A DNA stretch of 37,461 bases from Atractiella rhizophila (GCA_021432655.1 MU271218.1:1-37461), one strand, 5' to 3'. Positions 4,621-37,461 are shown, counted from the first letter of the stretch. Notes: a model not told the origin generated them from the letters alone. Made by a program: numbers and translations.

Positions 4621-6465
4621 TCAGTGTCGCTCGTCTCCACCCTCCCGAACCCATCTAATATCGTCATCCTCGCTCACCCCACACTCTGTCAGCGTCCTCC
4701 TGGCCATGCATATCTCTCCCTCACGCCACGCTCCAAAGAACAGCTTGACCGTCAAATAGCGTCCACTCGCTGTTTCTGCCTGTTCAGCTTCATCCAACAT
4801 ATTCCCCTCCTTCTTGACGCCCCTGTCCCCAAAGAACCAGCAGATGAATCTGGGAATATGTGCCCTGTGAACTCCCAGTCCACCACACAGTACTCAACAT
4901 CTATGTGCTTTATCAGATTTGCACTTATGAGGGTGTGGAAGAACTGGGGCGAAACGAGATTTGAACTTTCCTCACCACCGTCGAGGTAGAGCTCAGTGAG
5001 ATGTTTGAGGTGTGATAAGTTGAGCGGAGTGGGGAGCATGGAGATCTTTCCAGCAGGCCAGTAGGGGGCGAGCTTGATCTCGAGATATTCTAGGAGAGGC
5101 GGCAAGCAGGACCCTGAGACGGAGGGAGGGAGCGGACACAAATTGGAGAGACACAGCCATATAAGGGTTTGTGGGAGGGAAAGTAATGGGAGAGGCGGGT
5201 AAGCGTAAAGCGCTAGGCTTTTGAGGTCAGATGATAATTGAAGGCCTGGTGATGTCGACGAGGCAGAGTCCTCCACGTTGTCAGCACGGAAGGTTCTGAT
5301 CCTGTCACCCATCCTCCACACAAAATTCTCGACCGCATCCTTCTTCCACTTTCTCGAACCCTGTCCTCCAAACCATATGTAATCCGGCCTAGTCAAGCCT
5401 TCAATTGCGTGCAACACAGTCTTCGCCTCCTCTTCACTCCAAAATGCATCCATCCGGACTGTTGTCACATTCGGTGAGCCAGCGATGATGTCTTTCGCCA
5501 TTTCAACGCTAACATCATCTTCAAACATTCTTTCAAACTGGAGGGACGTCCACAAACGTCCGGCATGAGGATATTGTTTCAAACGAGCATACCTGTCCTT
5601 CATCGAAACAAACAAATCATCCAAATATGGGACTGAAACAGCCTTCCAGAGCCGACAGACGGCAGAAAGTCGCTGGAAGGAAACGAGATATTCTTTATTG
5701 AGACCCTCGACAAACTTTTCATTCTTATCAAATGAAAGGAACTCAATGAGGAGAGAGAGAATCTCTGTGGGTAGCTGTGCGATAGTGCATGGATTATTCC
5801 CTGGAGTTTGAGTTGGGCAGAGTGAGAGTTGGATGGTGGTCCCCAGAGCGGTGGATGGAATGGTTGATTCCTCCCAATGGTTGATAGGAACGAAACGGTG
5901 TTCCTTGTTAGAATATCGGGCGACGGGTTTGAAGATGACCTCAGAGCGATTATCTGGAAGATGAAACATGCATGTGAAGGGCTTCAGAGACAGGTCCTGG
6001 GAATCCATGGAAGCATGATGTTTGGTATCCCCAAACGTTACCGTAATAGTTTTCTCCTCCAAAGCGATGCAAAGATCCAGTGTGCCGTCGGATTCAACTA
6101 CATTTTCAAGACCTTCCAGAGAGAAGGAGAACAATTTTGACAATGAGGTACTCCAGATTCGAAGAGGCAAGTCAAACGTGATCCGGAGGGTGTCAATTGA
6201 TGGAAGGAGGCGAACAAGGAAAGATGGAAGAACAGAGAGGTGGACTGGAATGCCATGCTCTAACATTACTGCGGTAATGAGATGAACCAGAGCAGTTGAG
6301 TCTGTTTCCTGGCTGTCCTTGTGTGAAATCGACGTTTTTCTTTTTTTCATTCTGGGAGATAAGATGCTGGACTAAAGCCCACAAACCCATGTTAAACGAG
6401 ACAAGAGAGGGAGAACGATCAGATCATGCCTGCATTGCCTCAGCATGTTGCCCAACTTGAACCAC
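4621..6465 (-). pseudogene. F-box/LRR-like protein, copy 1 (probable pseudogene)
   Basis: ORF 4752..6350 has the F-box motif QLPTEILSLLIEFL...RLSAVCRLWKAV and LRR-like strands. One base is missing at ~4847-4849 (gatgaa-tctg vs gatgaaatctg/gatgaagtctg in paralogs). Restoring it gives FICWFFGDRG...WVREGGDERH* ending at 4621. The homologous exon-1 start codon is GTG (6463-6465); intron 6372..6429. Confidence 0.8.
6372..6429 (-). other. 58-nt GC-AG intron, F-box copy 1
   Basis: Minus strand CAG|GCATGA...pyrimidine tract...TTTAAC...TTTAG|TCC; phase 0. Confidence 0.7.
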
Positions 6466-6585
6466 TCGATGTTCTCTGTGGAATGATCAGAGATTGCAAC
6501 GCCGTTGGTAGGAGTAGATGGATTCCACGACTGTTTAGGCCGCTGTTAGGGGTGAAGTGTAAGTGGAAGCAGGTGTCCGGACGTA

Positions 6586-8090
6586 GGTGGCGAAATGCGA
6601 AATGAAGGGCGAACCACGGCGCAGAAGGTTAGTGCAGCAAAAAGAGATGGCCGCGGTCGAAAAGGAGTAGAAGAGACGCAGGGACAGTCTTTCACGCGTC
6701 TTTCTGCGATCATCGACTGAATTCGACCGCTCTGCCAACCATTTTCACCATTTGAAGTGCCTCTCATGCTTTGGGTTTATTTTAGATGACCATTTGGCGA
6801 GAGAAGGTGGAAGGGATTGGTGGAGGGGGGAATAGCCAATAGTAGAGGGCAAGAGAATGGGCGAGGCGACGAAACACGGTGCCACGAGTGGGTGGGCAAA
6901 TGAGTTGGCAGGGACTTATTTATGGCCTCATTTCCGACCCCATCTGAGCCACAGTCCACCTCCTTCGCCGTTTCGCAGTTGACGTTGTGATGCCTACGGT
7001 GAAGCAAGTTGCTTAGAGTCGAAGGACGGCTGAAGCAGGCTTGGGGATGTTAGAGAGCGAGGTGAAACGAGAGGCAACTGTGGGTGAGAGAAAGTATATC
7101 ACGCCCCTCCGATGTCCAGGCTTGATCCCCGACCCGCTGTGTCAGCTCAATCCTCTACAATCGCGATCCGACCTCCAACTCGACCTGGCGTTCATTTCGG
7201 AGGACAGAAAGGTTGGTGGTGGTGGAGGAGCGGAGGATGATGGATGTCGGTGGGGTGTGGGGAGAGAGGGATGCTGGAGCGAGAGAGGTGAGTGGCGTGG
7301 CAAGGGTTATGGGAAGTGGGATAGGTCGGATGGAGGTATTGAGACTGGTGCAGCGGGGCGGCGCTTCCTGCTTCCCTCTAACTGCTCTCTCGCTTCGTAG
7401 CACGGCAGTGAGGATAACTCAGGACGCTGGGAGGGTCGAGCCGTGCTGAGGCGGGACGGGGTTGCAGGGGAAGAGGACGATGGTGGATACAGGGACGGGG
7501 GGAGGAACCTAATACCATGTCAGTAAAAGAAAATGCAAAAAGCGAGAGAGGGAACGAGACGGTCCCCTCTTCTCGTACCTCTCTGCCTCCATCTCTGTCA
7601 CACGTCGCCTTCCATTATGCACCATTCTGTTGGCAACTTATTCCCTCCCTCCTTCGCGCTGATTGTACTTGTCTATTCATCACTTGCGCACACCCCCACT
7701 ACCGTCTACTCTCCCTGCGCCTCCCCACCCTGTAGAGCCTGCTCTGTCACCAGCTGTCCAAGTATTTCGGTTAGTACCCTTCACCCGTAGCCCAGGAAGG
7801 GTACACCTGCAAAAGAGGACGGTGGGGGATAGCTGCGGTGAAAATGTACTGTGGAGGAGAGAAGTGCTGGAGGGGATGACGAAGGAGGGACACTAGAGTG
7901 AAGGAGACCAGCGAGACGCAAGCGAGGTGAGGCTTGGGACTGCATGAAAGAAACGGCTAGTTCAGAGCGAGAAAGAGGAACGGCGGCGGAGATCGAGAGA
8001 CGATGAGGACGTTCGGAGACGGTGCACTAGTGACTGCTTGCGGAGGCGGAAGAGATGAAAGGAGCTGGCGAGGAGCTGGAGCATGATGAC
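6586..8090 (-). pseudogene. Gene X relic, unit 2 (3' part deleted)
   Basis: Colinear similarity to ~480..2170 and 28450..29990. Confidence 0.45.
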
Positions 8091-8099
8091 CGACGCTTT

Positions 8100-9300
8100 T
8101 ACGGGTCAAATTCGCGACGCGCCGCGTTCCCAATCATGATGCGCAAGCAAGGATCTCACGAGACACCACTCTGTCTTCCTTTCTTTCCTATGTTCGACTT
8201 GCAAAAGAATGGATGCAGGATCCACGCAAGAACATCTGTGGTACCAATGTCTGCCCGTGTGCATGGGCAAGATCGCAGATGCCATTATCAAGATCCTACA
8301 GTATCGTCTAGAGTCACGAAACTGCAATAGTCGCTGCTGGTACGTCTCCACCTCTCCTCTCTCGTCTCGCTTGCTAAAGAAAATGAACATAGTTTGACAC
8401 AAAGTCATCCACTCAAGAAGGGAGATCGCGTCGCATTTGAGCCCGGAGAGAGACTTTTAGGACATGTCCTGACTGCAAGGCGGGAAGGTATGAGCTATGC
8501 CCTTCCATCAAGTTCGTCGTGACCCCGCCTTTCGTGAGTATTCCTCTTCCTTCTGTGGTACATGTTTGGGTTCTAACTCATTGGATGGCCGGACGGAACT
8601 CTCCGCGGGTCTACAAGCTCCAAGGCGACCTGTACGATCTGTCCCTCCCGTCTATTCCTCTCTCCGATCGCTAACTATGACTTATCATGTCTGCAGTGGA
8701 AGCGCCTACACTTCCGGATGTGCTTTCGATTCCCTGCTCGCAGGGATTATCTTGTAAAACAACACCGACTGGACTGAACGTTTCCCTAGAAGAAGGAGCG
8801 AGGGTCGAACCGCTCTCCGTGGCTGTCCAAAGCGTGGGACATATCAATGGATGAAAGCTGGGTTGAACGTCGCCATCTGCGGATTCATCTTCCTCGCCCT
8901 TCTCCTCCTCCACCGGTAAAAGAAAACAATACTAACGGTGTTGTGAAGACCTGATCTGTAGGAACCCTCGCACAGGCGGTCGCGAAGGCCTTTGCCACTA
9001 GAACGATAATCGCCGTCGAGATTCAAGAGTGGTAGGATCACTTTGGCGAACAAAGGCGTGGGATCGAAGTTCATGCCCCCCAGACGTGCGTCCAACTCTA
9101 ACGTCTCTTATGCATGACTTGTCTCATGTTTCCGTTTCTTTTTGACCATCGTGTTTTTGCGTTTGTGGTTTCGCGAAGGAGGGAGAGCAGAGGATAGCGT
9201 ACTCGAGGACGACCGCGAGGTTCATGAAGAGGAGTTCAAGGTTGCATACTACGGATTGGAGGGTATCGACCTCCCTGTAGACATTACGGGAGGTGTGGAC
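8100..9300 (+). pseudogene. XDH/SDH relic, unit 2a (5' two-thirds)
   Basis: HGKIADAIIKDP, KKGDRVAFEP, CKAGRYELCPSIKF, NVSLEEGARVEPLSVAVQ (8777-8830), LAQAVAKAF..IIAVEIQE and EEFKVA..GLEGIDLPVDITG; disrupted. Confidence 0.85.
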
Positions 9301-9349
9301 CAGGAGAATGGGGTCTTGTTCCCCGTTCCAACCTCGACATCCCAGCACA

Positions 9350-10270
9350 ACATTTTGTGAGCCGGGAGTAGGCGCTCGTGTGTCTTAGGCGGTATGCTAC
9401 CGCTCCTTCATGTGCCATGTATATATGGGCAGAGAGTTGAGGTGAGTTTCGAGGAGACCGTATCCACCTCGAGCGCGGAGAGTCATGTAGGATGTGCTAC
9501 GAATCCAATGCGGGAAGGTGCGAGCTCTGTCTCTTCATCGAATTCCCCGCTACTTTTCCTTCCGTGAACTTTCCCTCTTCCCTCTCTCTCCTTTTCGTGG
9601 TACGCGACTTCGTGCTGACTTGATTGGTTGGCAGGGCGGTCGTTGCGAGACTACAGACTATGGCAAGACTTGTACATTATTTTACAATACCCCTCCGCTC
9701 TCCAAACGCTGACTTATCTGGTCCGTGATGACAGAGCCTACAGATTTCCCGATGTACGTTCCAGGTCCCCTACTCTCGCCGAATATGTCGTATAACGGAC
9801 TGCTGGTGTGATAACAGAACGTCTCCGTAGATGAAGGGTTCCATGATCGAACTGCTCTCCGTGATCCTTCAAAGCCTAACACGCATCGGAGTATGAAAGC
9901 AAAGTAGAAGGTTGAACTTTACCTTCATCGGGTTTATCTCCCTCCCTTTCTCTTATACCCTTCGAATAAAAAGTCAATACGCGCCAACTTGTGTTGTGAA
10001 CGGCCGATCCAAGAGTGCTACTCGCGCAGGCAGTCGCGAAGCCGATAGGTACTTAAAGGATAAAGCTGTCGATATTTAGGAGCGTAGGCTAGCTTTCGCA
10101 AACAAGTACGTGAGGGATGCAATTCGCATCTTTAAGACAATAAAGACTTGCCAACTCTCTTCTCTGCTGCCTTGATGTCACAAAGTTGAAACCTAGTGAC
10201 GATAGTTGGCCCTAGGACGTGAAGAGAGGGGATGAGGAGGACGGGATAAAGACCACCGATGGATACGACG
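9350..10270 (+). pseudogene. XDH/SDH relic, unit 2b (internally deleted)
   Basis: GDRIHLERGESCRMCYE.NAGRCELC, NVSVDEG..MIELLSV, LLAQAVAK and RLAFANKYV, then fused at ~10112 directly to RDAIRIFKTI; ends in an IKT.DG-like segment. Confidence 0.8.
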
Positions 10271-10559
10271 ACAATTGAGCCTTGCAGCTACGTGAATGCA
10301 ACTCTCGGGCTATTAAGGAATTGAAGGAACACAAAGTACTACACAAAGGGTGGAATGTCACCACTATTACACCACAGCTTCGATCTTCAATGGCAGCTCA
10401 TTCTGTTCTTGATTAGTCCATCATCGAATGTACAAGTCGTCGTCAACCGTAAGAACAACTCAGGCAAGACTCAAAATGTGAAGGGCTTTTTACATTGTGG
10501 CACATTTTGGACGGAACTTGATGTCTTCGGCGCTTTTACAGGGAATCAGTAGAATTGTT

Positions 10560-11017
10560 TGCATGAGAAAAGACATCCGTAATACACACAGCTAGCGTCC
10601 TCCTCACAAACCCGGTCTCCCATGCCCTGAAGCTTCCTCAAGGAAATGAAATAATCATCAACAGCAATTCTACTTCTTCCCATCCATCGTGACCCACAAA
10701 TAAACACTGGGAGACTGACTCACTCTACGCGGCACGAAATAGCTATGACCTTCACCTCATTCTGTTCTAATAGTGTGTAAGGACAGACTCGGTGCAGACG
10801 GGGTTATAAGATTGCGGATAACCACCGAGCACGAGGGAGGTGACCTTTATGAGGTGCAGTATGGGGAACGGATGGAGGGATGGCATTGTCCCGAACGAAG
10901 TTCAGCCCTGTTCCTGTCACCCATTTCAATGCTGTGTTCGATGGAGAGGGACTCGAACCACGCACCTTCTTCTCGTGTCTTCTCTGGAACACGAGTGAAA
11001 TCTGAGTATCTCCAACA
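10560..11017 (-). pseudogene. Decayed duplicate of the F-box/LRR C-terminal region, unit 2
   Basis: Homologous to the unit-4 relic; reads HLIKVTSL and LPVFIC on the minus strand. Confidence 0.5.
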
Positions 11018-12845
11018 TCACTCCTCCCCACCCTCCCGAACCCATATGTATTCATTCTCCTTGCTCACAACAAACTCTTTCAGTGTGCTCCTAGCCTTAC
11101 ATATCTCGTCCTCAAGCCACCCTCCAAAGAATAGCTGAACCCTCAACCAGCGTCCTCTCGTCGTCTTCACCTTTTCAGCTCCATCTGCCGTATCCCCCTC
11201 CTCCTTCACCCCCCTGTCCCCAAAGAACCAGCAGATGAAATCTGAGAATACGAACGGAGTGAATTCCCAGTCCACCACACAATACCGAACCTCTATATAG
11301 CCCATCGCTTTTGCATTTGTGAGGGTGTGGAAGAACTGAGGGGAAACGAGGTTGGAAGTTTCCTCACCGCCGTCGAGGTAGAGGCTAGTGAGATGTTTGA
11401 GGTGTGAAAAGTCGAGTGGACTGGGTAGCATGGAGGTCTTTCCATCAGGCGAGTAGGGGGCGAGGGTGATCTCGAGATGTTCGAGAAGACTCGGCAGACA
11501 GGAGCCTGAGACGGAGGGAGGGAGGGGACACAGATTGGAGAGAAGCAGCTGTGTGAGGGTGAGTGTCAGGGAGAGGGATGGGAGTGGTGGGTACGCGCGA
11601 AGCTCTAGTTCGTTGAGGTCAGATGATAATTGAAGGCCTAATGATGGCGACGAGGCAGAGTCCTTGACATCGAAAGCACGGAAGGTTCTGATCCTGTCAC
11701 CCATCCTCAACATAAAATTCTCGACCTCATCCTTCTTCCACTTTCTCCAACCTTGCCCTCCAAACCATATGTCATCCAACTTCCTCAAGCCTTCAATCGC
11801 ATGCAACACAATCTTCGCCTCCTCTTCATTCCAAATTGCGTCCAAGTGCACATATGTGACATTCGGCGAGCCCGCGATGACGTCTTTCGCCCTGTCAACA
11901 CTGATGTCATTGACAAGCTGTTTCCTAAACCAGAGGGATGTCCACAAACGCCCGGCATTAGGATAAGCTGTCAAACGAGCATGCATCTCCTTCACAGAAA
12001 CAGCTTCACTCAAATATGGGGCTGAAACAGCCTTCCAAAGCTGACAGACGGCAGAAAGTCGCTCGAAGTCAACAAGATATCCAGTACCTTCTTTGAGCCT
12101 TTCAGATTCGTCGAATGAAAGAAACTCGAAGATGAGTGAGAGGATCTCAGGAGGAAGGTGTGTGATACTGCATAAACTAATACCTGTAGGTTGAGTTGTG
12201 GAGAGGGACAGTTGGATGGTTGTCCGCAGATCGGTGGATGGAATGGTTGATTCCTCCCATTCGCTGAGAGGAATGAAACGCCGTTGCCTCTTGGAGTATA
12301 GGGCAACGGGTTCAAAGAGGACCTGAGAGCGATTATCTGGAAGATGAAAAGTGCATGTGAAGGGCTTCCGAGACAGGCGCTCCAATTCCACGGATGCACG
12401 ATGTTTGGTATCCCCAAAAGTTACCATAATACTTTCCTCCTCCAACGTGATGCAAAGAATCACTGCACCGTCGGGTTCTCCTTTATTTTCATGACCTTCC
12501 AGAGAGAAGTAGGACGATTTCGAGGGTCCATACTTGAGCTTCCAGAATCGAATAGGTAAGACGAACTTGATCCGGAGCGTGTGAATTGATGGAGGTAGGC
12601 GAGAAATGAAAGAGGGAAGAATGGAGAGGTGGATCGGAGTGCCATGTTGTAATTCTGCTGCAGTGATGAGATGGATCAGGGCGATTGACTCTGTCCCCTG
12701 ATCATCCTTTGGTGAAATCAATCGTTCCTTCTCAACGTTTCCCGGAGATGCACTGGACTGAAGCTCACGAATTCATGTCAAATGAGACAAGAGAAGGGGA
12801 AAGATCATATCATGCCTGCAGCGCATCAGCACGTTGTCCAGCCAT
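11018..12845 (-). CDS. F-box/LRR-like protein, copy 2 (exons 12816..12845 + 11018..12757; 589 aa)
   Basis: Long ORF 11018..12721 with the F-box THLPPEILSLIFEFL...FERLSAVCQLWKAV. The ORF-track start is TTG and an in-frame stop lies shortly upstream. Splicing the 58-nt intron 12758..12815 gives MAGQRADALQ|SSASPGNVEKERLISPKDDQG in frame. Confidence 0.88.
12758..12815 (-). other. 58-nt GC-AG intron, F-box copy 2
   Basis: CAG|GCATGA...TTTGAC...TTCAG|TCC. Splicing removes an in-frame TGA and supplies an in-frame ATG upstream of the N-terminal domain. Confidence 0.75.
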
Positions 12846-13189
12846 CCCGACGTTCTCCGTGCAATGATCAGGCCGATCAAGCATCATCGTGAGGAGATCG
12901 TAAAGCCGTTCGTGGGAGTGGATGGGTTAGGTGACCGTTTGAAATTAGGACAGATATCGATGGTGTTGGTGGAAGTCGGCGTCCGGACGTTCCAGACTCC
13001 AGTTCAATTCCACTACTTGAGAGGATTACGAGGTGGTGCCACAGGTCGTGCTAAAACTTGTCAATGAAACGAACTCCTTAGCAATACTAGAATTAAATTA
13101 CACTGTGATTCAAACGAAAGCTGTAGCAGAACACTCTGATCTTGATGCTTCGTCCCGCAATGACCGATTGTGATAGGAAGGACAGATAG

Positions 13190-14860: not shown

Positions 14861-14869
14861 CTCAGTTTG

Positions 14870-16416: not shown

Positions 16417-16719
16417 TTAACGAATGAACCTTGCAGCTCCGTGCATGCAACTCTCGGACTTATGAAGGAAATGAAGGAACAAAAAGATGGAATTTAAACT
16501 ACCAGAAAGGGTTCATGGAATGGTACCATGATTATACCACACCTTCGATCTTCGACGACAGCTCCTTCTGTTCTCCTAAGTAGCTCATCTTTGAATGCAC
16601 GAGTCGTACTCAACTGTAAGAACAACGCAAGCCTGACTCAAACTGTGAATCAGTTTCTTTACAAGGCAATTTTTGGGCGGAACTTGTTGTCGTCGGCACT
16701 TTTACAGGGAATCAGAAGA

Positions 16720-17257: not shown

Positions 17258-19070
17258 TCACTCTCCACCTTCCAGAACACATCTAAAGTTGTCATCCTCG
17301 CTCACCCCACACTCACTCAACGTGCTCCTAGCCTTGCATATCTCTTGCTCAAGCCACCCTCCAAAGAATAGCGTAATCCTCAAGTCGCGTCCTCTCGTCG
17401 TCTTCACCTTTTCAGCACCATCCACCGTATCCCCCTCTTCCTTCAACCCCCTGTTCCCAAAGAACCAGCAGATGAAGGCTGAGAATACGAACCCTGTGAA
17501 TGCCCAGTCCACCACACAGTACCGAACATCTATGGTTGCTATTGCTTTTGCATTTGTGAGGGTGTGGAAGAACTGAGGGGAAACGAGGTTGGAAGTTTCC
17601 TCACCACCGTCGAGTTTAAGGTATCTGAGATGTTTGAGGTGTGATAGGTCGAGCGGAGTTGGTAGGATGGAGGTCTTTCCATCCGGCGAGTAGGGGGCGA
17701 GTGTGATCTGGAGACGTTTGAGGAGAGGCGGCAGACAGGTGCCTGAGATGGACGGGGGGAGTGGATACAGTTTGGACAGCTCCAGCAATCTGAGGGTGAG
17801 TGGGAGAGAGAGCGATGGGAGAGGCGGGTATGTGTGAAGCCATAGACTTTTGAGGCCAGATGATAATTGAAGGCCTGGTGATGTCGACGAGGCAGAGTCC
17901 TTGACGTCGTATGCATCGAAGGATCTGATCCTGTCACCCATCCTCCGCATAAAATTCTCGACCTCATCCTTCTTCCACTTTCTCGAACCTTGACCTCGAA
18001 ACTTTACGTCATCCAACCTCGTCAAGCCTTCCATCGCATGCAACACAATCTTCGCCTCCTCTTCATTCCAAATTGCATCCATCCTCACCTTCGTAACATT
18101 TGGCGCACCGGCGATGACGTCTTTCACCATCTCAACGTTAATGTCATCGTCATAGCTTCTATTAAGCCAGAGGGAGGGCCACAAACACCCAGCATTAGGA
18201 TAAGCTTTCAAGCGAGCATGCCTCTCCTTCACAGAAACAGGTATACTCAAATATGGGGCTGAAACAGCCTTCCAAAGCTGACAGACGGCAGAAAGTCGCT
18301 CGAAGGTAGTGCTATCTATGAGCCCTTGAGATCGATCGAATGAAAGAAACTCGAAGATGAGTGAGAGGATCTCCGTAGGAAGGTGTGTGATACTGCATAA
18401 ACTAATAATACCTGTAGGTCGAGTTGTGGAGAGGGAGAGTTGGATCGTTGTCCCCAGACCGGTGGATGGGATGGTTGATTCCTCCCATTCGCTGAGAGGA
18501 ATGAAACGCCGTTGCTCCTTGGAGTATAGGGCAACGGGTTCAAAAAGGACCTGAGAGCGATTATCTGGAAGATGAAAAGTGCATGTGAAGGGCTTCCGAG
18601 ACAGGCGCTCCAATTCCACGGATGCACGATGTTTGGTATCCCCAAAAGCTACCGTAATACTTTCCTCCTCCAACGCAATGCAAAGAATCACTGCACCGTC
18701 GGGTTCGACTTCATTTTCGAGACCTGCCAGAGAGAAGTAGGATGATTTCGACGGCCCATAATCCACCGTCCAGAAGTCAATAGACAAGACAAATGTGATC
18801 CGGAGCATGTGAATTGATGGCGGTAGGCGAGAAAGGAAAGAGGAGAGAATGGAGAGGTGGATCGGAGTGCCATGTTTTAACGTTGCTGGGGTAATGAGAT
18901 GGACCAGTGCGATGGACTCTGTCCCCTGATCATCCTTGCACGAAATCGATGTTTTTCTTCTTTTCATTCTTGGAGATAACACGCTGGACTAAAGCCCACA
19001 AACGTACATTAAACGAGACAAGTGAGGGGGAAAGATCAGATCATGCCTGCAGTGCGTGTTGTTCAGCCAT
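17258..19070 (-). CDS. F-box/LRR-like protein, copy 3 (exons 19047..19070 + 17258..18988; 584 aa)
   Basis: Uninterrupted ORF 17258..18982 with the F-box THLPTEILSLIFEFL...RLSAVCQLWKAV. Exon 1 MAEQHALQ joins in frame across intron 18989..19046. An alternative unspliced ATG lies at 18967. Confidence 0.9.
18989..19046 (-). other. 58-nt GC-AG intron, F-box copy 3
   Basis: CAG|GCATGA...TTTAAT...TTTAG|TCC; phase 0. Confidence 0.72.
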
Positions 19071-19149
19071 CTCGACGTTCTCCACGCAACGATCAGACGT
19101 CATGATCGTGAGGATGGATCGCAAAACTGCTCGTGACAGTCGGTGGATT

Positions 19150-24890: not shown

Positions 24891-25149
24891 GACTATTAAG
24901 GAATTGAAGGAACAAAAAGATGTGATATGTACTACACAAAGGGTTCAAGGAATCGTACCATTGCTATACCACAGCTTCGATCTTCGATGGCAACTCCTTC
25001 TGTTCTCTTAAGCAGTCCATCGTCGAATGCACAAGTCGTCGTTAACTGTAAGAACAACTCAAGCAAGACTCAAAGGCTGAATCAGTTTGTTTAACAATTG
25101 TGGCACTTTGGATGGAACTGGATGTCTTGGGCACATTTACAGGGAATCA

Positions 25150-27476: not shown

Positions 27477-27799
27477 CTCGACATTCTCTGCGCAGTGATC
27501 AGACATCACGATCGTGAGGATGGAGATTGCAAAACCGATCGTGGGAGTCGGATTAGGCGACCGTTTGCAATTAGGACAGATTAGGATGATGTTGGGTGGA
27601 ATAAGTCTGCGTCCGGACAATGAAGGCTTTAGTTCTCTAGCACTTGACTACCACATAGTGCCACAGGAAATCCTAAAATATGTAAAAGAATTGAAATCCT
27701 TTGCAACACTAGTACCTAAATTACACTGCAATTCAAATGAGAGCTAGTGCAGAACGCTCTGATATTGATGCTTCGCCAGGAATGATCTGATTGTAAGAG

Positions 27800-29990
27800 G
27801 AAAGACTAGATAGAGAGATAGGGCAGTTAGCAACAGGATGGCAGATGGAGCGGAAGTCACTTGCATCTCAGCGAGAATATAGGTGATGTTCGAGTCAGGA
27901 GTGGGAGACAAGAGGGACGGAGGGCAGAGGCCGAGGAGCATGACAGAGGGGCCGACCTAGACATCCTCTTGTGGCTCCTGATCCAACACTGTCCCACTAC
28001 CCTCCTCTTTCTTCATCAGGTATTTCATGGTTGACCTTGATGTCACGAAGCAAGCGCCAGTGGAATATAATCCAAGGAGTGCGAGCCGGAGTGGGGCGGA
28101 AGATGCAGGATGAGGCGGGAGAGAGAATAGCACGGCGGCATGGAACACGGGAGAGGCATAGCAGGTGAGAGATGCGAAGGAATGCGATCAGAGTGCGAAG
28201 AAAGTGCGACGCATCCCTCCGACATCCTCTTGTCACATACCCTCCCTGCTACCCAACATCCAACCTGCGTGAGGGGGTGGAGTGCAAGAGGACGTGGAGT
28301 GAGACTATCAGAAAAGGGGGCAGTGAAGGATCTAGTCTGCATGTCAGTCAGGACACTTGTGGGAAGGAAAGAGAGGGAGAAAGGGAATATCCTGACAGCA
28401 GAAGGAAAGTCCCAACGAACCTAGCATGCGAAAAAAGGCAGAGGGGTTGGCAAAATGCGAAATGAAAGGCGAACCTTGGCGCAGAGGGTAAGTGCAGCAA
28501 AGAGAGATGAGAGAGGTCGAAAAGGAGTAGAAGAGACGCCGGGACGGTCTTCTCACGTCCTTCTGCGATCACGGACCGAATTCGTCCCCTCTGTCCACCA
28601 TTTTCAGCATTTGGGTTGATTTTAGATGCCTATTTTGCGAAAGAAGGTGGAAGAGATTGGTGGAGGCGAGAATAGCCAATAGTGAAGGGCCAGAGAAGGG
28701 CGAGGCGGCGAAAGACGGCGGCTCGAGTGGGATGGGCGAATGGGTTGGCAAGCACTTTTTTTTGACCTCCTTTCCCACCCCATCTGAACCACAGTCGACC
28801 TCCTTCGCCATCACGCGTCCCAACTACGCTTCGCGGTTGACTTGCGATGTCCACGGTGAAGCAAGTTGCTCACAGTGGAGGGACGACTGAAGCGGGCTTG
28901 GGATGGTAGAGAGCGAGGCGAAGTGACAGGGCAACTGTGGGTGAGAGAAAGCATAACTCATGCCTCTCCGATGTCTAGGCTCAATCCCCGATGCGCTGTC
29001 TCACTCCGTCCTCTACTTTCGCTATCCGACCTCCAACTTCGCCGCAGCGTTCATTTCGGAGGACAGAAAGGTCGCTGGAGGAGCGGAGGATGATGGATGT
29101 TGGCAGGGGCAGGGGCAGGTGTGGGGAGAGAGGGATGCTGGAGCGAGAGAGGCGAGAGTCGTGGCGAGGATTATAGGGAGTGGAATAGGTCGGATGGAGG
29201 TTGAGACTGGTGCAGGACGGCGCTTACTGCTTCCCTCTAACTGCCCTCTCGCTTCGTAGCCTGGCAATGAGGGTAAGTCAGGACGCGGGGAGGGACGAGC
29301 AGTGCTGAGGCGCGACGGAGTTGCAGGGGGAGAGGGGCGATAGCTATTAGGGTGACGGGAGAAAAACCTAATACCTATGTCAGTAAACGCAAATGCAAGC
29401 AGAGGGAGAGGGAACGAGACGGTCACCTCTTCTCTCGTACCACTCTGTCCCTTCGATCTTTGTCACACTTGGCCTTCCATTACGCAACATTCTGTTGGCA
29501 ATGTATCTTTATTCCTTCCCTTCTTCCCTTCTTCGCGCTAATTGCACTTGTCCATTCATCACTTGCGCACACCCTCGCTACCGTCTCCACTCCCTGCGCC
29601 CCCCACCCTGTCGAGCCTGCTCTGTCACCAGCTCTCCAAGTATTTCGGTTCGTACCACCTTCATCACCCGTAGTCTAGGAAGGGTCCATCAGCAGAAGGG
29701 GACGGTGGGGGATAGCTACGGTGAAGAGTACTGAGGAGGAGAGAGGAGCCGGAGGTGATGCCGAAGGTGACTGGGATAGGAGAGGATACCAGCACTATCC
29801 ACGGTGAGGGAGACCAGCGAGACGCGAGAGAGGTGAGGCATGGGACTGCATTAAACGGCTAGCTCAGAGGGAGAAAGAGGGAACGGCGGCGGAGATGGAG
29901 AGACCGAAGGAGGATGTTCGGAGACGGTGTACTAGTGAGTGCTTGCGGAGGCGGAGGAGATGAAAGGACAAGTGGTGACGGTGCTCAGTT
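27800..29990 (-). pseudogene. Gene X relic, unit 5
   Basis: Colinear with the other copies; intron GTGACC..ACTGAC..TTAG near 29368-29425. Confidence 0.45.
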
Positions 29991-30494
29991 TCGGAGGACT
30001 AACAGAAAACTCATTCGCTTCGCTTTCACGCGTCAAATTCGGCGTTCCTAACGCGCAAGATCTTACGAGACACCAGTCTGTCTTCCTTTCTTTCCTATGT
30101 ACAACTTGCAACCAATCAAAAAATGGATGCAAGATCCATGCAAGAACATCGGTGGTTCCGACGTCCGCTATTGGCAACCATTATGCACCATTCTGTTACT
30201 AATGCATCTTATTCCCTCCCTTGTATTCCTTTCCTTCCTGCGTCCACCTTGCGGCTAATGAAAGGGTGGATGCAGCATCCACGCAAAGGCGTCTGTGATT
30301 CCGACGTCCGCAAATGTGAAGATCGTGGATTTCAGCGTCAAAGTAGCTATGGTCTAGGGTCACAAAACTGCCGACGTAGTCGTTGCTAGTATCACCTCTC
30401 CCCTCTCGTCTCTCATCCACTTGCGAAATGAACATGGTTTTGCCCCAAAGTCACACACCTCAAGAAGGGAGATCGCGTCGCACTTGAGCCCATA
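29376..30494 (+). repeat. 1119-bp direct repeat A
   Basis: Virtually identical to 32844..33962 (offset 3468). The only difference I spotted by eye is gttact vs gttagc. Confidence 0.92.
29995..30494 (+). pseudogene. XDH/SDH 5' fragment, unit 5a
   Basis: Unit-3-type 5' part, truncated right after KKGDRVALEP at 30494. Confidence 0.75.
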
Positions 30495-31700
30495 TTCACG
30501 GGTCAAATTCGCGACGCGCCGCGTTCCCAATGATGCGCAAGCAAGGATCTCACGAGACACCACTCTGTCTTCCTTTCTTTCCTATGTTCGACTTGCAAAA
30601 GAATGGATGTAGGATCCACGCAAGAACATCTGTGGTACCAATGTCCGTGCATGGGCAAGATCGCAGATGTCATTATCAACATCCTACAGTATCGTCTAGA
30701 GTCACGAAACTGCAATAGTCGCTGCTGGTACGTCTCCACCTCTCCTCTCTCGTCTCGCTTGCTAAAGAAAATGAACATAGTTTGACACAAAGTCATCCAC
30801 TCAAGAAGGGAGATCGCGTCGCATTTGAGCCCGGAGAGAGACTTTTAGGACATGTCCTGACTGCAAGGCGGGAAGGTATGAGCTATGCCCTTCCATCAAG
30901 TTCGTCGTGACCCCGCCTTTCGTGAGTATTCCTCTTCCTTCTGTGGTACATGTTTGGGTTCTAACTCATTGGATGGCCGGACGGAACTCTCCGCGGGTCT
31001 ACAAGCTCCAAGGCGACCTGTACAATCTGTCCCTCCCGTCTATTCCTCTCTCCGATCGCTAACTTTGACTTGTCATGTCTGCAGTGGAAGCGCCTACACT
31101 TCCGGACTTGCTTTCGATTGCCTGCTCGCAGGGATTATCTTGTAAAACAACACCGACTGGACTGAACGTTTCCCTAGAAGAAGGAGCGAGGGTCGAACCG
31201 CTCTCCGTGGCTGTCCAAAGCGTGGGACGTATCAATGGATGAAAGCTGGGTTGAACGTCGCCATCTGCGGATTCATCTTCCTCGCCCTTCTCCTCCTCCA
31301 TCGGTAAAAGAAAACAATACTAACGGTGTTGTGAAGAGCTGATCTGTAGGAACCCTCGCACAGGCGGTCGCGAAGGCCTTTGCCGCTAGAACGATGATCG
31401 CCGTCGAGATTCAAGAGTGGTAGGATCACTTTGGCGAACAAAGGCGTGGGATCGAAGTTCATGCCCCCCAGACGTGCCTCCAACTCTAACGTCTCTTATG
31501 CATGACTTGTCTCATGTTTCCGTTTCTTTTTGACCGTCGTGTTTTGCGTTTGTGGTTTCGCGAAGGAGGGATAGCAGAGGATAGCGTACTCGAGGACGAC
31601 GGAGAGGATCATGAAGAGGAGTTCAAGGTTGCATACTACGGATTGGAGGGTATCGACCACCCTGTAGACATTACGGGAGGTGTGGACCAGGAGAATGGGG
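30495..31700 (+). pseudogene. XDH/SDH relic, unit 5b (near-copy of 2a)
   Basis: Nearly identical to 8100..9300, with the same motifs. Confidence 0.82.
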
Positions 31701-32499
31701 TCTTGTTCCCCGTTCCAACCTCGACATCCCAGCACAACATTTTGTGAGCCGGGAGTAGGCGCTCGTGTGTCTTAGGCGGTATGTTACCGCTCCTTCATGT
31801 GCCATGTATATATGGCAGAGTGTTGAGGTGAGTTTCGAGGAGACCGTATCCACCTCGGGCGCGGAGAGTCATGTAGGATGTGCTACGAATCCAATGCGGG
31901 AAGGTGGGAGCTCTTTCCCTTCATCGAATTCCCCGCTACTTTTCGCTTCCGTGAACTTTCCCACTTCCTTCTCTCTCCTTTTCGTGGTACGCAACTTCGT
32001 GCTGACTTGATTGGTTGGCAGGGCGGTCGCTGCGAGACTACAGACTATGGCAAGACTTGTACATTATTTTACAATACCCCTCCGCTCTCCAAACGCTGAC
32101 TTATCTGGTCCGTGATGACAGAGCCTACAGATTTCCCGATGTACGTTCCAGGTCCCCTACTCTCGTCGAATATGTCGTATAACGGACTGCTGGTGTGACA
32201 ACAGAACGTCTCCGTAGATGAAGGGTTCCATGATCGAACTGCTCTCCGTGATCCTTCAAAGCCTAACATGTATCGGAGTATGAAAGCAAAGTTGAAGGTT
32301 GAACTTTACCTTCGTCAGGTTTATCTCCCTCCCTTTCTCTTATAGCCTTCGAATAAAAAGTCAATACGCGCCAACTTGTGTTGTGAACAGCCGATCCAAG
32401 AGTGCTACTTGCACAGGCAGTCGCGAAGCCGTTAGGTACTTGAAGGATAAAGCTGTCGATATTTAGGAGCGTAGGCTAGCTTTCGAAAACAAGTACGTG
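30498..32499 (+). repeat. ~2-kb recent duplicate of 8101..10112
   Basis: Colinear and highly similar, with scattered substitutions and small indels. Confidence 0.92.
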
Positions 32500-32843
32500 G
32501 GGTTGGAGACTTTTGTTCCTCCCAAACGTGTGTCGACCTCTAACCTCTCTCATGCGCGTCCTGTCTGACGTTTCCGTTCCGACAACAGGCGTGCATTCAG
32601 ACCGTCTAACTTGTCAAGGATGGCAGAACGTGCGTCTAAGTGGGAATGGGCACCGAGTTCGTTCCAGGCGCCCGTCACTGCCATCCTCACGAAAGAGGTG
32701 ACCCTCAAGGTTCTTTCAGTTCAGTCCTCCCTCCTACGTTTTGCACTATAATGTTGTTCTGACGCTTCGTAGTTATTGATTTGCTCGATGAATACAGAGC
32801 GAGTGTTATGAGTAAGCAAATGATTTGTTCGCTAGCGGCCCTA
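31740..32843 (+). pseudogene. XDH/SDH relic, unit 5c (near-copy of 2b but retaining more middle sequence)
   Basis: Matches 9350..10112, then continues with GLETFVPPK, a VGMG-like segment and PVTAILTKEVTLK before being cut at ~32843. Confidence 0.8.
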
Positions 32844-33962
32844 TATGTCAGTAAACGCAAATGCAAGCAGAGGGAGAGGGAACGAGACGGTCACCTCTTC
32901 TCTCGTACCACTCTGTCCCTTCGATCTTTGTCACACTTGGCCTTCCATTACGCAACATTCTGTTGGCAATGTATCTTTATTCCTTCCCTTCTTCCCTTCT
33001 TCGCGCTAATTGCACTTGTCCATTCATCACTTGCGCACACCCTCGCTACCGTCTCCACTCCCTGCGCCCCCCACCCTGTCGAGCCTGCTCTGTCACCAGC
33101 TCTCCAAGTATTTCGGTTCGTACCACCTTCATCACCCGTAGTCTAGGAAGGGTCCATCAGCAGAAGGGGACGGTGGGGGATAGCTACGGTGAAGAGTACT
33201 GAGGAGGAGAGAGGAGCCGGAGGTGATGCCGAAGGTGACTGGGATAGGAGAGGATACCAGCACTATCCACGGTGAGGGAGACCAGCGAGACGCGAGAGAG
33301 GTGAGGCATGGGACTGCATTAAACGGCTAGCTCAGAGGGAGAAAGAGGGAACGGCGGCGGAGATGGAGAGACCGAAGGAGGATGTTCGGAGACGGTGTAC
33401 TAGTGAGTGCTTGCGGAGGCGGAGGAGATGAAAGGACAAGTGGTGACGGTGCTCAGTTTCGGAGGACTAACAGAAAACTCATTCGCTTCGCTTTCACGCG
33501 TCAAATTCGGCGTTCCTAACGCGCAAGATCTTACGAGACACCAGTCTGTCTTCCTTTCTTTCCTATGTACAACTTGCAACCAATCAAAAAATGGATGCAA
33601 GATCCATGCAAGAACATCGGTGGTTCCGACGTCCGCTATTGGCAACCATTATGCACCATTCTGTTAGCAATGCATCTTATTCCCTCCCTTGTATTCCTTT
33701 CCTTCCTGCGTCCACCTTGCGGCTAATGAAAGGGTGGATGCAGCATCCACGCAAAGGCGTCTGTGATTCCGACGTCCGCAAATGTGAAGATCGTGGATTT
33801 CAGCGTCAAAGTAGCTATGGTCTAGGGTCACAAAACTGCCGACGTAGTCGTTGCTAGTATCACCTCTCCCCTCTCGTCTCTCATCCACTTGCGAAATGAA
33901 CATGGTTTTGCCCCAAAGTCACACACCTCAAGAAGGGAGATCGCGTCGCACTTGAGCCCATA
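32844..33962 (+). repeat. 1119-bp direct repeat A'
   Basis: Second copy of 29376..30494. Confidence 0.92.
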
Positions 33963-35035
33963 GAGAGACTTTTAGGGGTGATGCGACTGCAAGAGGGGAA
34001 CGTATGAACTATGCGCTACCATAGAGTCTGCAGCCACTCCTCCTTTCGTCTGTCATTCCTCTTCCTTATGTCCCCTCTGTGGTACATGTTCCGGTGCTAA
34101 CTGCATTGAACGGCAGGACGGAACTCTCCAAGGGTTCTACGAGCTCCGAGGCTACTGCACGGCCTCTCCCTCTCGTCTACTCCTCTCCCCAATCGCGACT
34201 TATCACGTCTGTACTAGAAGTGCCTGCAAACTTCAGGATGCGCGTTCGATTCCCTGCGCTCCATGGATTATGTTTTGATCGAAACCCACTGGAACGAACA
34301 TTTTTCTGGAAGCGTCGATGGTCGCATCGCTCTCTGTGGCCGTTCAAAGCTTGACATGTATCAGTGGATAAAAGCTAGCTTGAACGTCGCCACCTGAGGG
34401 TTCGTCTCCCTCCCCTTACTCCTCCTCTATCTGTTGAACAAACAATAATAACGTTGTTGTGAAGAGCCGGTCCCGTAGGACTCCTTGCACAGGCAGTCGG
34501 GAAGGCGTTGGCCCGCTAGAAGGATAATCGCCGTCGACATTCATGAGCCGCAGGCTGGCTTCACAAACATGTATGTGGGATCGGAGACTTTCACGCCTCC
34601 CAAACGTGCGTCCACCTCTGACGTCTCTTCTACATGACTTGTCTCATGCATCTCTTTCTGTCTTTGCGTCGTGCCCGTCACTGCCATCTCCACGAAGGAG
34701 GTGACCATCAACGGGTCTTTCCTGTCCATCCTCCGTCCTACCGCTTGCACCATAACGTTGTTCTGACATTTCTTAGTTATTGATTTGCTCGATGGATACG
34801 AACAGGATGCCATGGGCAAACAATTCATTGGTTCGTTAAGGGCCACGTACACTGCTGAGCCGCTCATCACACATCGCTTCAAGTTCAGGGATGCAATTCG
34901 CACCTTTAAGACAATACAGGCTCGCCTCCTCTCTTCCCTTCGCCTTCATGTCACAAAGTTGAAACCTGGCCATGATGCTTCGCTGCAGGACGGGATGGGG
35001 ATGACGAGATTGAAATCGTCATCGACGGATACGTT
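33465..35035 (+). pseudogene. XDH/SDH relic, unit 5d (near-copy of unit 3)
   Basis: AGPVGLLAQAV, PVTAISTKEVTINGSF and EPLITHRFKFRDAIRTFKTIQ (34857-34919). Confidence 0.85.
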
Positions 35036-35339
35036 AACGAATGAACCTTGCAGCTCCGTGCATGCAACTCTCAGACTATGAAGGAAATAAGGAACAAAAA
35101 GATGGAATATAAACTACCAGAAAGGGTTCATGGAATGGTACCATGGTTATGGTTATACCACACCTTCGATCTTCGACGACAGCTCCTTCTGTTCTCCTAA
35201 GTAGCTCATCTTTGAATGCACGAGTCGTCGTCAAATGTAAGAACAACGCAATCCTGACTCAAACTGTGAATCAGTTTCTTTACAAGGCAATTTTTGGGCG
35301 GAACTTGTTATCTTCGGCACTTTTACAGGGAATCAGAAG

Positions 35340-35860
35340 AATTGTTTGCATGGAGAAGACATCCCGATCACACACAGAGGGTGTCCTCCTCACAAACCCG
35401 ATTTCTCAAGCCCTGAAACAATCATCAACAGCAATTCTACTTCTTCCCATCCATCGTCGTCATTGCCCGTATGTCTCGTTTCCTGATCCCCAAGAACCGG
35501 CACATAAACACTGGGAAACTAACTCACTCATGCGGTATGAAATAGTCATGACCTTTACCGCATTGTGTTAATACGGCGCATGGAAAGTCCTGGCGCAGAT
35601 GGAGTTCTAAGATTGCTCATAACCATAGAGCACGAGGCGTCGAGTACGAGGGAGGTGACCTTTGTGAGGTGCGGTATGTTGCATAGAGGGGAGAGGGATG
35701 GACGGATGACATCGTCCAGATCGAATTCCAGTCCCTGTCCCTAGTCACCCATTTTCAATTTTCAATGCCGTGTTAGTGTTAGATGTAGAGGGGTACAAAC
35801 TGTGCAGCTTCCTATCGTGTCTTCTCTAGAACGCGAGTCAAAAGCCTGAGAATCTCAGTG
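35340..35860 (-). pseudogene. Decayed duplicate of the F-box/LRR C-terminal region, unit 5
   Basis: Near-identical to 16720..17257. Confidence 0.55.
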
Positions 35861-35975
35861 TCACTCTCCACCTTCCCGAACCCATCTAAAGTCGTCATCC
35901 TCGCTCACCCCACACTCACTCAACGTGCTCCTAGCCTTGCATATCTCTTCCTCAAGCCACCCTCCAAAGAATAGC
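35861..35975 (-). pseudogene. Orphan copy-3-type F-box gene 3' end (115 bp)
   Basis: Encodes LFFGGWLEEEICKARSTLSECGVSEDDDFRWVREGGE*, lying 18 bp downstream of the copy-5 stop and out of frame with it. Confidence 0.85.
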
Positions 35976-35993
35976 ATCTGAGTATCTCCAACA

Positions 35994-37461
35994 TCACTCC
36001 TCCCCACCCTCCTTAACCCATATGTATTCATTCTCGTCGCTCACACCAAACTCTTTCAGTGTGCTCCTAGCCTTGCATATCTCGCCCTCAAGCCACCCTC
36101 CAAAGAATAGCCGAACGCTCAACTCGCGTCCTCTCGTTGTCTTCACCTTTTCAGCACCATCCACCGTATCCCCCTCCTCCTTCACCCCCCTGTCCCCAAA
36201 GAACCAGCAGATGAAGTCTGAGAATACGAACCCTGTGAATTCCCAGTCCACCACACAGTACCAAACATCTATGATGGTTATCGCTTTTGCATTTCTGAGG
36301 GTGTGGAAGAACTGGGGGGAAACAAGGTTTGAAGTTTCCTCACCACCGTCGAGGTGGAGTCCGGTGAGATGTTCGAGGTGTGATAGGTCGAGCGGAGTGG
36401 GTAGGATGGAGGTCTTTCCATCAGGCGAGTGGGGGGCGAGCGTGATCTTGAGATATTCTAGAAGAGGCGGTAGACAGGAGCCTGAGACAGAGGGAGGGAG
36501 GGGACACAGATTGGACAGCTCCAGCCATGTGAGGGTGTGTGGGAGAGAGAGCGATGGGAGAGGCGGGTATGTGTGAAGCGATAGTTCTTTGAGGTCAGAT
36601 GATAACTGAAGGCCTGGTGATGTCGACGAGGCAGACTCCTCCACATCGTAAGCATGGAAGGATCTGATCCTGTCACCCATCCTCCGCATAAAATTCTCGA
36701 CCTCATCCTCCTTCCACTTTCTCGAACCTCGGCTGCCAAAGGTTACATAATCCAACTTCCTCAAGCCTCCAATCACGTGCAACACAATCTTCGCCTCCTC
36801 TTCATTCCAAATTGCATCCATCCGCACTGTTGTGACATTTGGCGAGCCCGCGATGACGTCTTTCGCCATCTCGAAGCTCATGTCATCGTCCCCACTGTCA
36901 AACAAGAGATATGTCCACAAATGCCCAGCATTAGGATAAGCCTTCAAGCGAGCATGCATCTCCTTCGTAGAAACATCTCTACTCAAATATGGGGCTGAAA
37001 CAGCGTTCCAAAGCTGACAGACGGCAGAAAGTCGCTTGAAGTCAACAAGATATCCAGTATCTTCTGTGAGCTGTGCAGATTCATCGAATGAAAGAAACTT
37101 GAAAATGAGTGAGAGGATCTCAGGAGGAAGGTGTGTGATACCGCATAAACTAATACCTGTAGGTTGAGTTGTGGAGAGGGAGAGTTGGATGGTGGTTCCC
37201 AGACCGGTGGATGGGATGGTTGATTCCTCCCATTTGCTGAGAGGAATGAAACGCCATTGGAAGTATGAGTATAGGGCGGCGTGGTCGAAGATGGCCTCAG
37301 AGCGATTATCTGGGAGGTGAAACGTGCATGTGAAGGGCTGCACGTCCAGGTCATCCATATCCGCGAATGCAAGATATTTGGCATCCCCAAAAGTCACCGC
37401 AATACTTTCCTCCTCCAACGCGATGCAAAGAATCGCTGTACCGTCGGGTTCGACTTCATTT
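35994..37461 (-). CDS. F-box/LRR-like protein, copy 5 (5' end beyond the window)
   Basis: Open frame from the window edge to the stop at 35994, with the F-box THLPPEILSLIFKFL...RLSAVCQLWNAV and a complete C-terminus WVKEGGEE*. Confidence 0.88.
   Translation of the reverse strand, partial: NEVEPDGTAILCIALEEESIAVTFGDAKYLAFADMDDLDVQPFTCTFHLPDNRSEAIFDHAALYSYFQWRFIPLSKWEESTIPSTGLGTTIQLSLSTTQPTGISLCGITHLPPEILSLIFKFLSFDESAQLTEDTGYLVDFKRLSAVCQLWNAVSAPYLSRDVSTKEMHARLKAYPNAGHLWTYLLFDSGDDDMSFEMAKDVIAGSPNVTTVRMDAIWNEEEAKIVLHVIGGLRKLDYVTFGSRGSRKWKEDEVENFMRRMGDRIRSFHAYDVEESASSTSPGLQLSSDLKELSLHTYPPLPSLSLPHTLTWLELSNLCPLPPSVSGSCLPPLLEYLKITLAPHSPDGKTSILPTPLDLSHLEHLTGLHLDGGEETSNLVSPQFFHTLRNAKAITIIDVWYCVVDWEFTGFVFSDFICWFFGDRGVKEEGDTVDGAEKVKTTRGRELSVRLFFGGWLEGEICKARSTLKEFGVSDENEYIWVKEGGEE

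Follow-up and report, generated by a model that had tools for sequence, protein, structure and literature searches.

Proteins of the FBXL type, such as human FBXL17, FBXL2 and Skp2, as well as relatives from yeast and plants such as TIR1, COI1 and MAX2, carry an F-box followed by a solenoid of leucine-rich repeats (LRRs), and the same order of domains is found in the genes described here, which form a tandem array in a stretch of 37,461 nucleotides from the root-associated fungus Atractiella rhizophila (GCA_021432655.1, MU271218.1:1-37461; "the window" refers to this whole stretch). FBXL-type proteins are also the best structural matches of the array. The Atractiella proteins differ from them in having an additional orphan N-terminal domain of ~180 residues and a loop within the F-box, in showing no detectable sequence similarity beyond the F-box, and in being found in one species as tandem arrays; a role in an SCF (Skp1-cullin-F-box) ubiquitin ligase is predicted here from motif and fold. 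The locus is probably a head-to-tail tandem array of FBXL-type F-box/LRR substrate receptors that belong to a young family and have a diversifying concave surface. The finding is real and well delimited, comprising an FBXL-like, single-species family with a diversifying concave LRR sheet on a conserved fold and F-box core.

Tandemly expanded F-box families have already been described in mushroom-forming fungi, in the available parts of the sources cited next, and the Atractiella array extends this known phenomenon. According to these, the Agaricomycetes have large and fast-evolving F-box repertoires derived mostly from recent tandem duplication (Krizsan et al., 10.1101/349894; Nagy et al. 2023, PMC10282164), all three features being shared with the Atractiella family. 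The expansions of the Agaricomycetes are found in mushroom-forming fungi and are tied to fruiting-body development, and no site-level selection on an LRR surface is reported for them in the same parts of those sources; unlike them, the Atractiella family belongs to the Pucciniomycotina and has its own N-terminal domain. In a literature search that did not cover subscription journals, no paper turned up that deals with this family or with selection at individual sites of fungal F-box LRR proteins.

Outside the fungi, F-box families of nematodes and plants were reportedly found, in a study from 2006, to be under positive selection in the substrate-binding domain. These families share with that of Atractiella the lineage-specific expansion and the positive selection in the substrate-binding part, and differ from it in the kind of binding domain, which is FTH, HTH or FBA instead of LRR, and in belonging to other kingdoms; an immune role is there likewise only hypothesised. 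Strong positive selection has also been described for F-box genes of Caenorhabditis elegans (PMC8120010, in the part available). Additionally, the S-locus F-box (SLF) arrays of plant self-incompatibility consist of linked F-box paralogs that are thought to divide among them the recognition of variable non-self proteins (available parts of PMC12033343 and PMC11170026). The Atractiella array resembles them in its linked F-box paralogs; SLF proteins, in turn, use an FBA-type domain beside an S-RNase, and no toxin-like partner gene was found by Pfam among the 119 spacer open reading frames (ORFs) of the window.

Innate immunity in fungi is known mainly from proteins similar to NOD-like receptors (NLRs). 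The LRRs of plant NLRs and the WD40, ANK and TPR repeats of fungal NLRs show the same diversification at exposed positions, on a conserved scaffold and in clustered, recombining paralogs, as the array; the sensor repeats of fungal NLRs are not known to be LRRs. NLRs have NB-ARC or NACHT domains, whereas the only Pfam match of the Atractiella copies is F-box-like. With E values up to 1, Pfam gave only F-box-like/F-box matches and one SPASM match at chance level, with no NB-ARC or NACHT domain, and the region before the F-box is beta-rich and without a match to a P-loop fold. On the absence of NB-ARC and NACHT in this search, the identity as an NLR or STAND (signal transduction ATPases with numerous domains) receptor was rejected.

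Probable diversification of the concave LRR sheet

The window contains five long minus-strand ORFs in head-to-tail tandem (c1 to c5), whose proteins align over 577 columns with a mean column identity of 77%, c1 being the outlier (64-65% identity to the other copies). The five paralogs had first been noticed in a sequence-only reading, and the six strand strings that it quoted for them are all present letter for letter. The full-length model of c3, obtained with AlphaFold2 on the family alignment (mean predicted local distance difference test, pLDDT, 79.3; predicted template modelling score, pTM, 0.66), has nine strand-helix or strand-loop repeats with a pLDDT of ~85-96 across residues 250-500. 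The solenoid lies directly C-terminal to the F-box, as in the FBXL subfamily. The top ranks in Foldseek are TIR1, MAX2/D3, NLRC4, FBXL3, COI1 and Skp2, with 39 matches at E ≤0.001, and the LRRs of NLRC4, NLRP3 and NRC2 are also among the fold matches. VIA-align (VIA), run on chains from Foldseek's list, aligned the model with FBXL17 (6wcq_B; Z 17.8, root-mean-square deviation (rmsd) 4.2, 292 residues aligned), FBXL2 (6o60_C; Z 17.7, rmsd 4.9, 315 aligned) and again FBXL17 (6w66_B; Z 17.6), and in all three of these top alignments the first model residue aligned is 190/191, at the F-box. The solenoid fold foreseen in the sequence-only reading is thus supported by the model and by the match to FBXL17; of its "about ten strands" the series itself is present, the count being nine for the solenoid and one more for the tail.

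The residues expected to vary were taken as x3, x5 and x7 of the LxxLxLxx motif, which correspond to positions 1, 3 and 5 of the nine DSSP strands and make up a class of 27 codons (x class); the class was set from the AlphaFold strands and not from variability, to avoid circularity. Among the five copies, these 27 positions have a mean entropy of 1.35 bits, against 0.38 for the 229 remaining positions of the LRR (Mann-Whitney p 1e-11). The same contrast was found outside the window in the 13 paralogs with at least 60% identity to c3 (1.95 vs 0.63 bits elsewhere in the LRR, p 4e-10), where 17 of the 27 most variable LRR positions belong to the x class, as well as in 20 paralogs at 35-60% identity (2.61 vs 1.00, p 2e-13; 18 of 27), and fades in the eight paralogs below 35% identity (2.14 vs 1.78).

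The ratio of nonsynonymous to synonymous substitution rates (dN/dS, omega) was estimated by a composite pairwise codon likelihood, which is tree-free and so not biased by recombination. With a shared synonymous rate, omega is 3.84 at the x codons vs 0.64 in the rest of the gene, and in 150 codon bootstraps the two classes range over 2.41-5.90 (minimum 2.09) and 0.53-0.79, respectively. Shifting the register of the class by -3, -1, +1, +3 and +5 lowers omega from 3.84 at shift 0 to 0.59, 0.46, 0.30, 0.38 and 0.49, and the sliding shows a strict period of two. Random sets of 27 LRR codons (60 sets) have a mean omega of 0.77 and a maximum of 1.53, below the observed value. Furthermore, the 3' non-coding flanks have Jukes-Cantor (JC) distances of 0.22-0.53 between copies, save for c3-c5 at 0.017, so that the x positions, with a dN of 0.62, have diverged roughly twice as far as neutral DNA. 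Exposed residues, alternating along each of the nine strands, outpace both synonymous sites and flanking non-coding DNA. The entropy, the register control and the random sets place the hypervariability where the sequence-only reading had seen it.

By the Nei-Gojobori counting method (NG86), the core positions L4 and L6 have a dN of 0.04, a dS of 0.13 and an omega of 0.29, and the rest of the LRR has a dN of 0.11, a dS of 0.25 and an omega of 0.45. The hydrophobic core of the strands is kept by purifying selection. The description of the copies as near-invariant between strands was too strong, with a dN/dS of 0.45-0.48 there and of 0.84 in the N-terminal domain.

Site models on a five-taxon tree were fitted with our own implementation of GY94 with F3x4 frequencies. 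Model M0 gives an omega of 0.73, and the tree is nearly a star, with internal branches of ~0.02 and terminal branches of 0.06-0.19. Models that admit a class with omega above 1 fit better in each comparison, judged by the log-likelihood (lnL) and by twice its difference (2dlnL): M1a vs M2a (lnL -5284.85 vs -5243.36, 2dlnL 83.0), M7 vs M8 (-5286.36 vs -5243.41, 85.9) and M8a vs M8 (-5284.89 vs -5243.41, 82.9). On the second- and third-best topologies the 2dlnL is 88.8 and 89.2. M2a assigns an omega of 8.5 to 5.7% of sites and of 0.05 to 38%. The LRR alone, on its own best tree, has a 2dlnL of 56.3 with 8.1% of sites at an omega of 7.2, and the N-terminal plus F-box part has a 2dlnL of 17.8. A naive posterior above 0.8 was obtained for 21 sites, eight of them in the 27-codon class and one at an x2 position (Fisher p 1.2e-6), and in the LRR-only run 9 of 13 such sites are in the class; the other high-posterior sites are spread over the N-terminal domain, the linker that follows the F-box, and the tail.

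These estimates have to be weighed against birth-and-death decay, in which the copies would be redundant recent duplicates under relaxed constraint, the exposed residues would be neutral (omega ~1), and conversion from diverged paralogs, multi-nucleotide changes and the local mutation rate would inflate the estimates. Several observations speak for decay and against selection for diversity. NG86, summed over the ten pairs, gives for the x class a dN of 0.62, a dS of 0.52 and an omega of 1.18 (bootstrap 0.64-2.13); as 106 of the 270 pairwise codon comparisons in this class differ at two or three bases, counting methods are unreliable for it and the value was taken as a lower-bound view. If the x codons may take a separate synonymous rate, this rate rises 1.9-fold and omega becomes 1.96 (0.98-4.47), with 4 of 100 replicates at omega ≤1, so that the dN/dS above 1 claimed for these positions holds with the shared rate and in M7/M8 and is only borderline with the free rate. 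The whole-gene dN/dS is high (0.51-0.96 by pair), M1a already puts 54% of sites at an omega of 1, and the tails of c1 and c4, two of the five copies, are frameshifted. The mosaic structure of the copies, described below, can inflate tree-based site tests, an example being column 381 (S/E/S/S/E), which reaches a posterior of 1.0 through conflict with the tree. Against the main reading it also counts that the codon analyses cover only the DNA of the five window copies, with home-made codon-model code that was not validated by simulation, and that no protein identical to c3, c4 or c5 is present among the 103 family proteins fetched.

Decay is nevertheless unlikely. The omega of the core and the 38% of sites at 0.05 in M2a indicate that the fold is maintained. 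With the shared synonymous rate, none of the 150 bootstraps gives an omega of 2 or less for the x positions, and the x-position dN is above the divergence of the flanks. The strict period-two pattern and its recurrence in 33 other paralogs are unlike conversion tracts. If decay were true, the locus would be just a clear example of birth-and-death turnover. Diversification of the concave sheet is the reading followed below.

Domain architecture and distribution of the family

In each protein, an orphan N-terminal domain rich in beta structure precedes an F-box, which is weak but consistent, and the nine-strand LRR solenoid. The F-box-like domain (PF12937) has a match in all five copies, with E values from 8e-6 to 0.018. 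All 46 members of a family alignment that reaches down to 22% identity have P197 and E199, and L196, L201, F205, V228, C229 and W232 are each at least 90% conserved in the same 46; these are the L-P-x-E ... C-x-x-W positions of the F-box. A search of all PDB sequences with the family profile gave 17 matches, of which 16 are F-box proteins matched at their F-box (best FBXL5, E 0.0016), including FBXL5, FBXL17, Skp2, FBH1, FBXL2, TIR1 and FBXW7. The membership is marginal by score and consistent across methods, and the F-box plus LRR architecture proposed from the sequence is upheld by PF12937, the conserved L-P-x-E, the PDB profile matches and VIA.

Some features of this region fit instead a vestigial F-box, with proteins that would act without SCF as LRR receptors or scaffolds and have their output through the orphan N-terminal domain. 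Only c5, with 26.0 bits, beats the PF12937 cut-off of 24.3 bits, the other four copies falling below it, and between helix 1 and helix 2 of the F-box there is an inserted variable loop modelled with low confidence (pLDDT under 50). The N-terminal domain, in addition, is confidently predicted, conserved in the family and without a known fold. The (near-)invariance of the LP-E core and of the C and W positions down to 22% identity points to retained function, and the best structural matches align with FBXL2 and FBXL17 from the F-box onward; loss of the F-box function is very improbable, and an F-box that would serve as adaptor is assumed in what follows.

The N-terminal domain was also modelled alone, from an alignment of one species only, with a pLDDT of 81.8 and a pTM of 0.77. 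No structural relative was found: the best Foldseek match has an E of 0.6, the best VIA match among 48,161 representative chains a Z of 2.6 with an rmsd of 3.1 over 76 aligned residues, and scores in the ESM Atlas are at most 0.78, which is chance level. The domain is, as modelled, a candidate new fold, and the lack of matches does not prove novelty. It is fast-evolving (omega 0.84), which may reflect a part in recognition or just weak constraint. High-posterior sites with omega above 1 in this domain are alignment columns 10, 64, 68, 69, 124 and 151.

A word-indexed search with c3 found 55 proteins, 54 of them hypothetical proteins of Atractiella rhizophila and the remaining one P0018, which is the window's own c1. 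When 1.84 billion representatives were searched exhaustively with HMMER, 61 proteins came up, and the 10 weakest or longest of these matches, when looked up, were all from Atractiella rhizophila. No relative outside this species was detected among the 1.84 billion representatives, and all the named relatives are from it; as judged from sequence databases, the gene family is young and so far known solely from Atractiella rhizophila. Further contigs contain six family members (82,413 bp) and five (100,918 bp), and several are also present on contigs of 104,506 and 112,534 bp, so there are probably further arrays elsewhere in the genome.

The distribution bears on whether these are SCF adaptors with an ordinary regulatory role towards proteins of the fungus itself, their surfaces having diverged towards different endogenous substrates after duplication, with no continuing arms race. 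The F-box families of the Agaricomycetes, with 67-1,199 copies that arose largely by recent tandem duplication and are under developmental regulation (10.1101/349894 and PMC10282164, as far as their available parts state), are a precedent for this, and the Atractiella copies are transcribed in culture-type cDNA. The lack of a relative outside one species among the 1.84 billion representatives argues in the other direction, and the fact that the same positions are hypervariable among close and distant members alike is more in keeping with continuing diversification than with a single division of conserved substrates. An endogenous role of this kind is quite unlikely, and continuing diversification is preferred.

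Proposed recognition and transcription

In the proposed mechanism, the predicted F-box would dock on Skp1 in an SCF ubiquitin ligase, judging from motif and fold, and each paralog would offer a different concave LRR surface, by which a different or changing protein would be recruited for ubiquitylation. The pressure on these surfaces may come from targets that evolve or vary, for example proteins encoded by viruses or mobile elements, by bacteria or other fungi, or by the plant host, or allelic variants from other strains. To call the targets foreign or variable goes one step further, and is suggested only by the likeness to the F-box families of nematodes and plants, the plant NLRs and the SLF arrays; it must be set against this that the sequence names no substrate and no link to non-self recognition. 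Carried to its end, the analogy would make the array an intracellular "degrade-the-intruder" repertoire on a chassis unlike that of the fungal NLRs, in which the paralogs would tag foreign or strain-variable proteins (of a mycovirus or mobile element, a bacterial or plant effector, or an allotype) for destruction by SCF. Such a repertoire, with a new N-terminal fold and concave LRR faces kept diverse by selection and gene conversion, would have its counterparts in the SLF arrays of plants and in the role that has been proposed for the F-box families of nematodes; as a specific claim it is doubtful.

The locus joins an LRR surface that has the evolutionary signature of a recognition repertoire with the motif of a ubiquitin-ligase adaptor, in a root-associated fungus. 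Should the proteins indeed bind Skp1, they would be a concrete case of fungal substrate receptors that diversify under selection, with the 27 residues involved already defined.

Transcripts were sought in three sets of contigs. The kind of run X3 is unrecorded; its contigs have GT..AG or CT..AC joints of 48-117 bases, by which it was taken as cDNA. Over 7500-27480 its contigs, with an identity of at least 97%, are present in 29 of 30 bins and take in c2, c3 and c4; 416 contigs were placed, 295 of them at 99% identity or more, and 73 fit two places. On c3 they occupy the bins 16838-18838 and on c4 the bins 25509-27480, and one contig joins 12757 to 12816, which is the annotated intron of c2. 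At least c2, c3 and c4 are thus covered by cDNA contigs, which show neither the level of expression nor the strand. The root metatranscriptome X1 has 36 contigs on the stretch, some of them at least 97% alike on c2, c3 and c4, and X2 has 2 contigs (shares of 0.07 for X1 and 0.05 for X2). The X1 contigs are a weak hint of expression in roots.

Expression in roots would also suit F-box effectors that the fungus passes into the cells of plant roots, where they would take over host SCF ligases, as described for the bacterial GALA proteins (PMC2244805, in its available part), given that Atractiella rhizophila is root-associated and that the X1 contigs match c2, c3 and c4. The N-termini of the proteins (MKRRKTSISCKDDQ..., and MMLDRPDHCTEN... 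in P0003), by visual inspection only, are charged and without the hydrophobic core of a signal peptide. Delivery into the host is scarcely credible, and the proteins are treated here as intracellular receptors of the fungus itself.

In one X3 contig, 18148 in c3 is joined to 11932 in c2, 6,217 bases back, and the two sides are separated by 11 foreign letters. A chimera of two paralogs made in assembly is the likeliest explanation, the alternative being a read-through or trans-spliced product.

Organization of the array and its spacers

The coordinates of the copies, of the domains as mapped on c3 and of the spacers are listed in the table.

Table. Coordinates of the F-box/LRR array; residue numbers are those of the c3 protein.
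Feature	Position	Strand	Description
c1	ORF 4752-6350, feature 4752..6377	-	database model P0018 (541 aa), 100% identity to 6371-4755
c2	ORF 11018-12721, feature 11018..12887	-	annotated P0003 (603 aa, BT69DRAFT_1277447)
c3	17258-18967	-	intact 569-aa ORF; used for the structure model
c4	25844-27367	-	507-aa ORF
c5	ORF 35994-37460, feature 35994..37461	-	5' end cut by the window end; tail intact
N-terminal orphan beta-rich domain	c3 residues 17-180, 18428..18919	-	AlphaFold
F-box-like motif	c3 residues 191-240, 18248..18397	-	LPTEILSLIFEFLS ... LSAVCQLWKAVS; Pfam PF12937
LRR solenoid, nine strands	c3 residues 241-500, 17468..18247	-	DSSP on the AlphaFold model
x3/x5/x7 positions	c3 residues 265/267/269, 293/295/297, 320/322/324, 349/351/353, 374/376/378, 394/396/398, 418/420/422, 449/451/453, 478/480/482		
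Spacer of the repeat unit	6378..11017	.	equivalents 1-4751, 12888-17257, 18968-25843, 27368-35993

The ORFs are intact in three of the five copies, and both frameshifts touch just the last 30-70 codons. In the DNA alignment of the five 3' ends, c1 has a 1-bp deletion near 4845-4850 that alters the frame of its final ~30 codons, and c4 has a 1-bp deletion just ahead of the stop codon by which a C-terminal tail of ~65 residues is lost. The two exons of c2 are separated by an intron at 12758-12815, and the C-terminal tail of this copy is intact; P0003 matches c2 with 100% identity over 12763-11021, and the first 25 residues are encoded at 12887-12813. The best identity of c3 in the database is 80%. 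A decaying or processed pseudogene array was considered and rejected on the three intact ORFs, the 38% of sites with an omega of 0.05 (M2a), the core omega of 0.29 and the spliced cDNA contigs.

By self-BLAST, the repeat unit around each gene measures 6.2-10 kb and the spacers have blocks in common that are 73-99.8% identical. All ten possible 2|3 groupings of c1 to c5 are backed by 4-14 informative sites each (85 in total), with a support that shifts along the gene, which indicates that the copies are mosaics from gene conversion or unequal exchange. Between c3 and c5, the near-identity of the 3' flanks (16840-17257 and 35570-35993; JC 0.017) compared with a difference of 13-14% in the coding regions points to a recent conversion or exchange that ended within the gene. 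The array grows and reshuffles through unequal crossing-over and gene conversion of the 6-10 kb unit. Repeat-induced point mutation (RIP) as the origin of the changes was rejected, with TpA/ApT at 0.40-0.73 and (CpA+TpG)/(ApC+GpT) at 1.09-1.43 in genes and spacers and a kappa of ~2.3.

The 3' coding tail of c5 (the last ~40 codons) is tandemly duplicated at 35994-36200 on the minus strand, and the second tail copy is, like the flank, near-identical to that of c3. Within the two long spacers, the blocks 8098-10116 and 30495-32502 are 97.1% identical and the blocks 29376-30494 and 32844-33962 are 99.8% identical, far more alike than the genes they flank, which indicates very recent duplication within these spacers.

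No intact second gene was found in the spacers, where 119 stop-to-stop ORFs of at least 80 aa gave four weak Pfam matches, SWIM being the only one above the cut-off. A second spacer gene was rejected, there being just weak ADH_N, SWIM and Prot_inhib_II matches, and none of these ORFs matched transposase, reverse-transcriptase or integrase domains. The SWIM zinc finger (21.9 bits vs a cut-off of 19.6) is in a 134-aa stop-to-stop ORF at 3530-3931 on the minus strand, for which no homologue was found among longer proteins; it sits in the sole non-repeated stretch to the left of c1, outside the repeated blocks. With no such mobile-element domain in the spacer ORFs and no RIP-type composition, a gene borne by a transposable element was rejected. 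Additionally, each spacer contains on the plus strand a remnant similar to zinc-dependent alcohol/sorbitol dehydrogenase, at 2289-3097, 8202-9282, 15104-15900, 30596-31373 and 33695-34491. An ADH_N match at 2500-2841 is weak and does not reach the cut-off (E 8e-4), and after removal of the plus-strand introns seen in cDNA no ORF longer than 109 aa is left. The remnant appears to be a transcribed pseudogene, copied together with the F-box gene unit.

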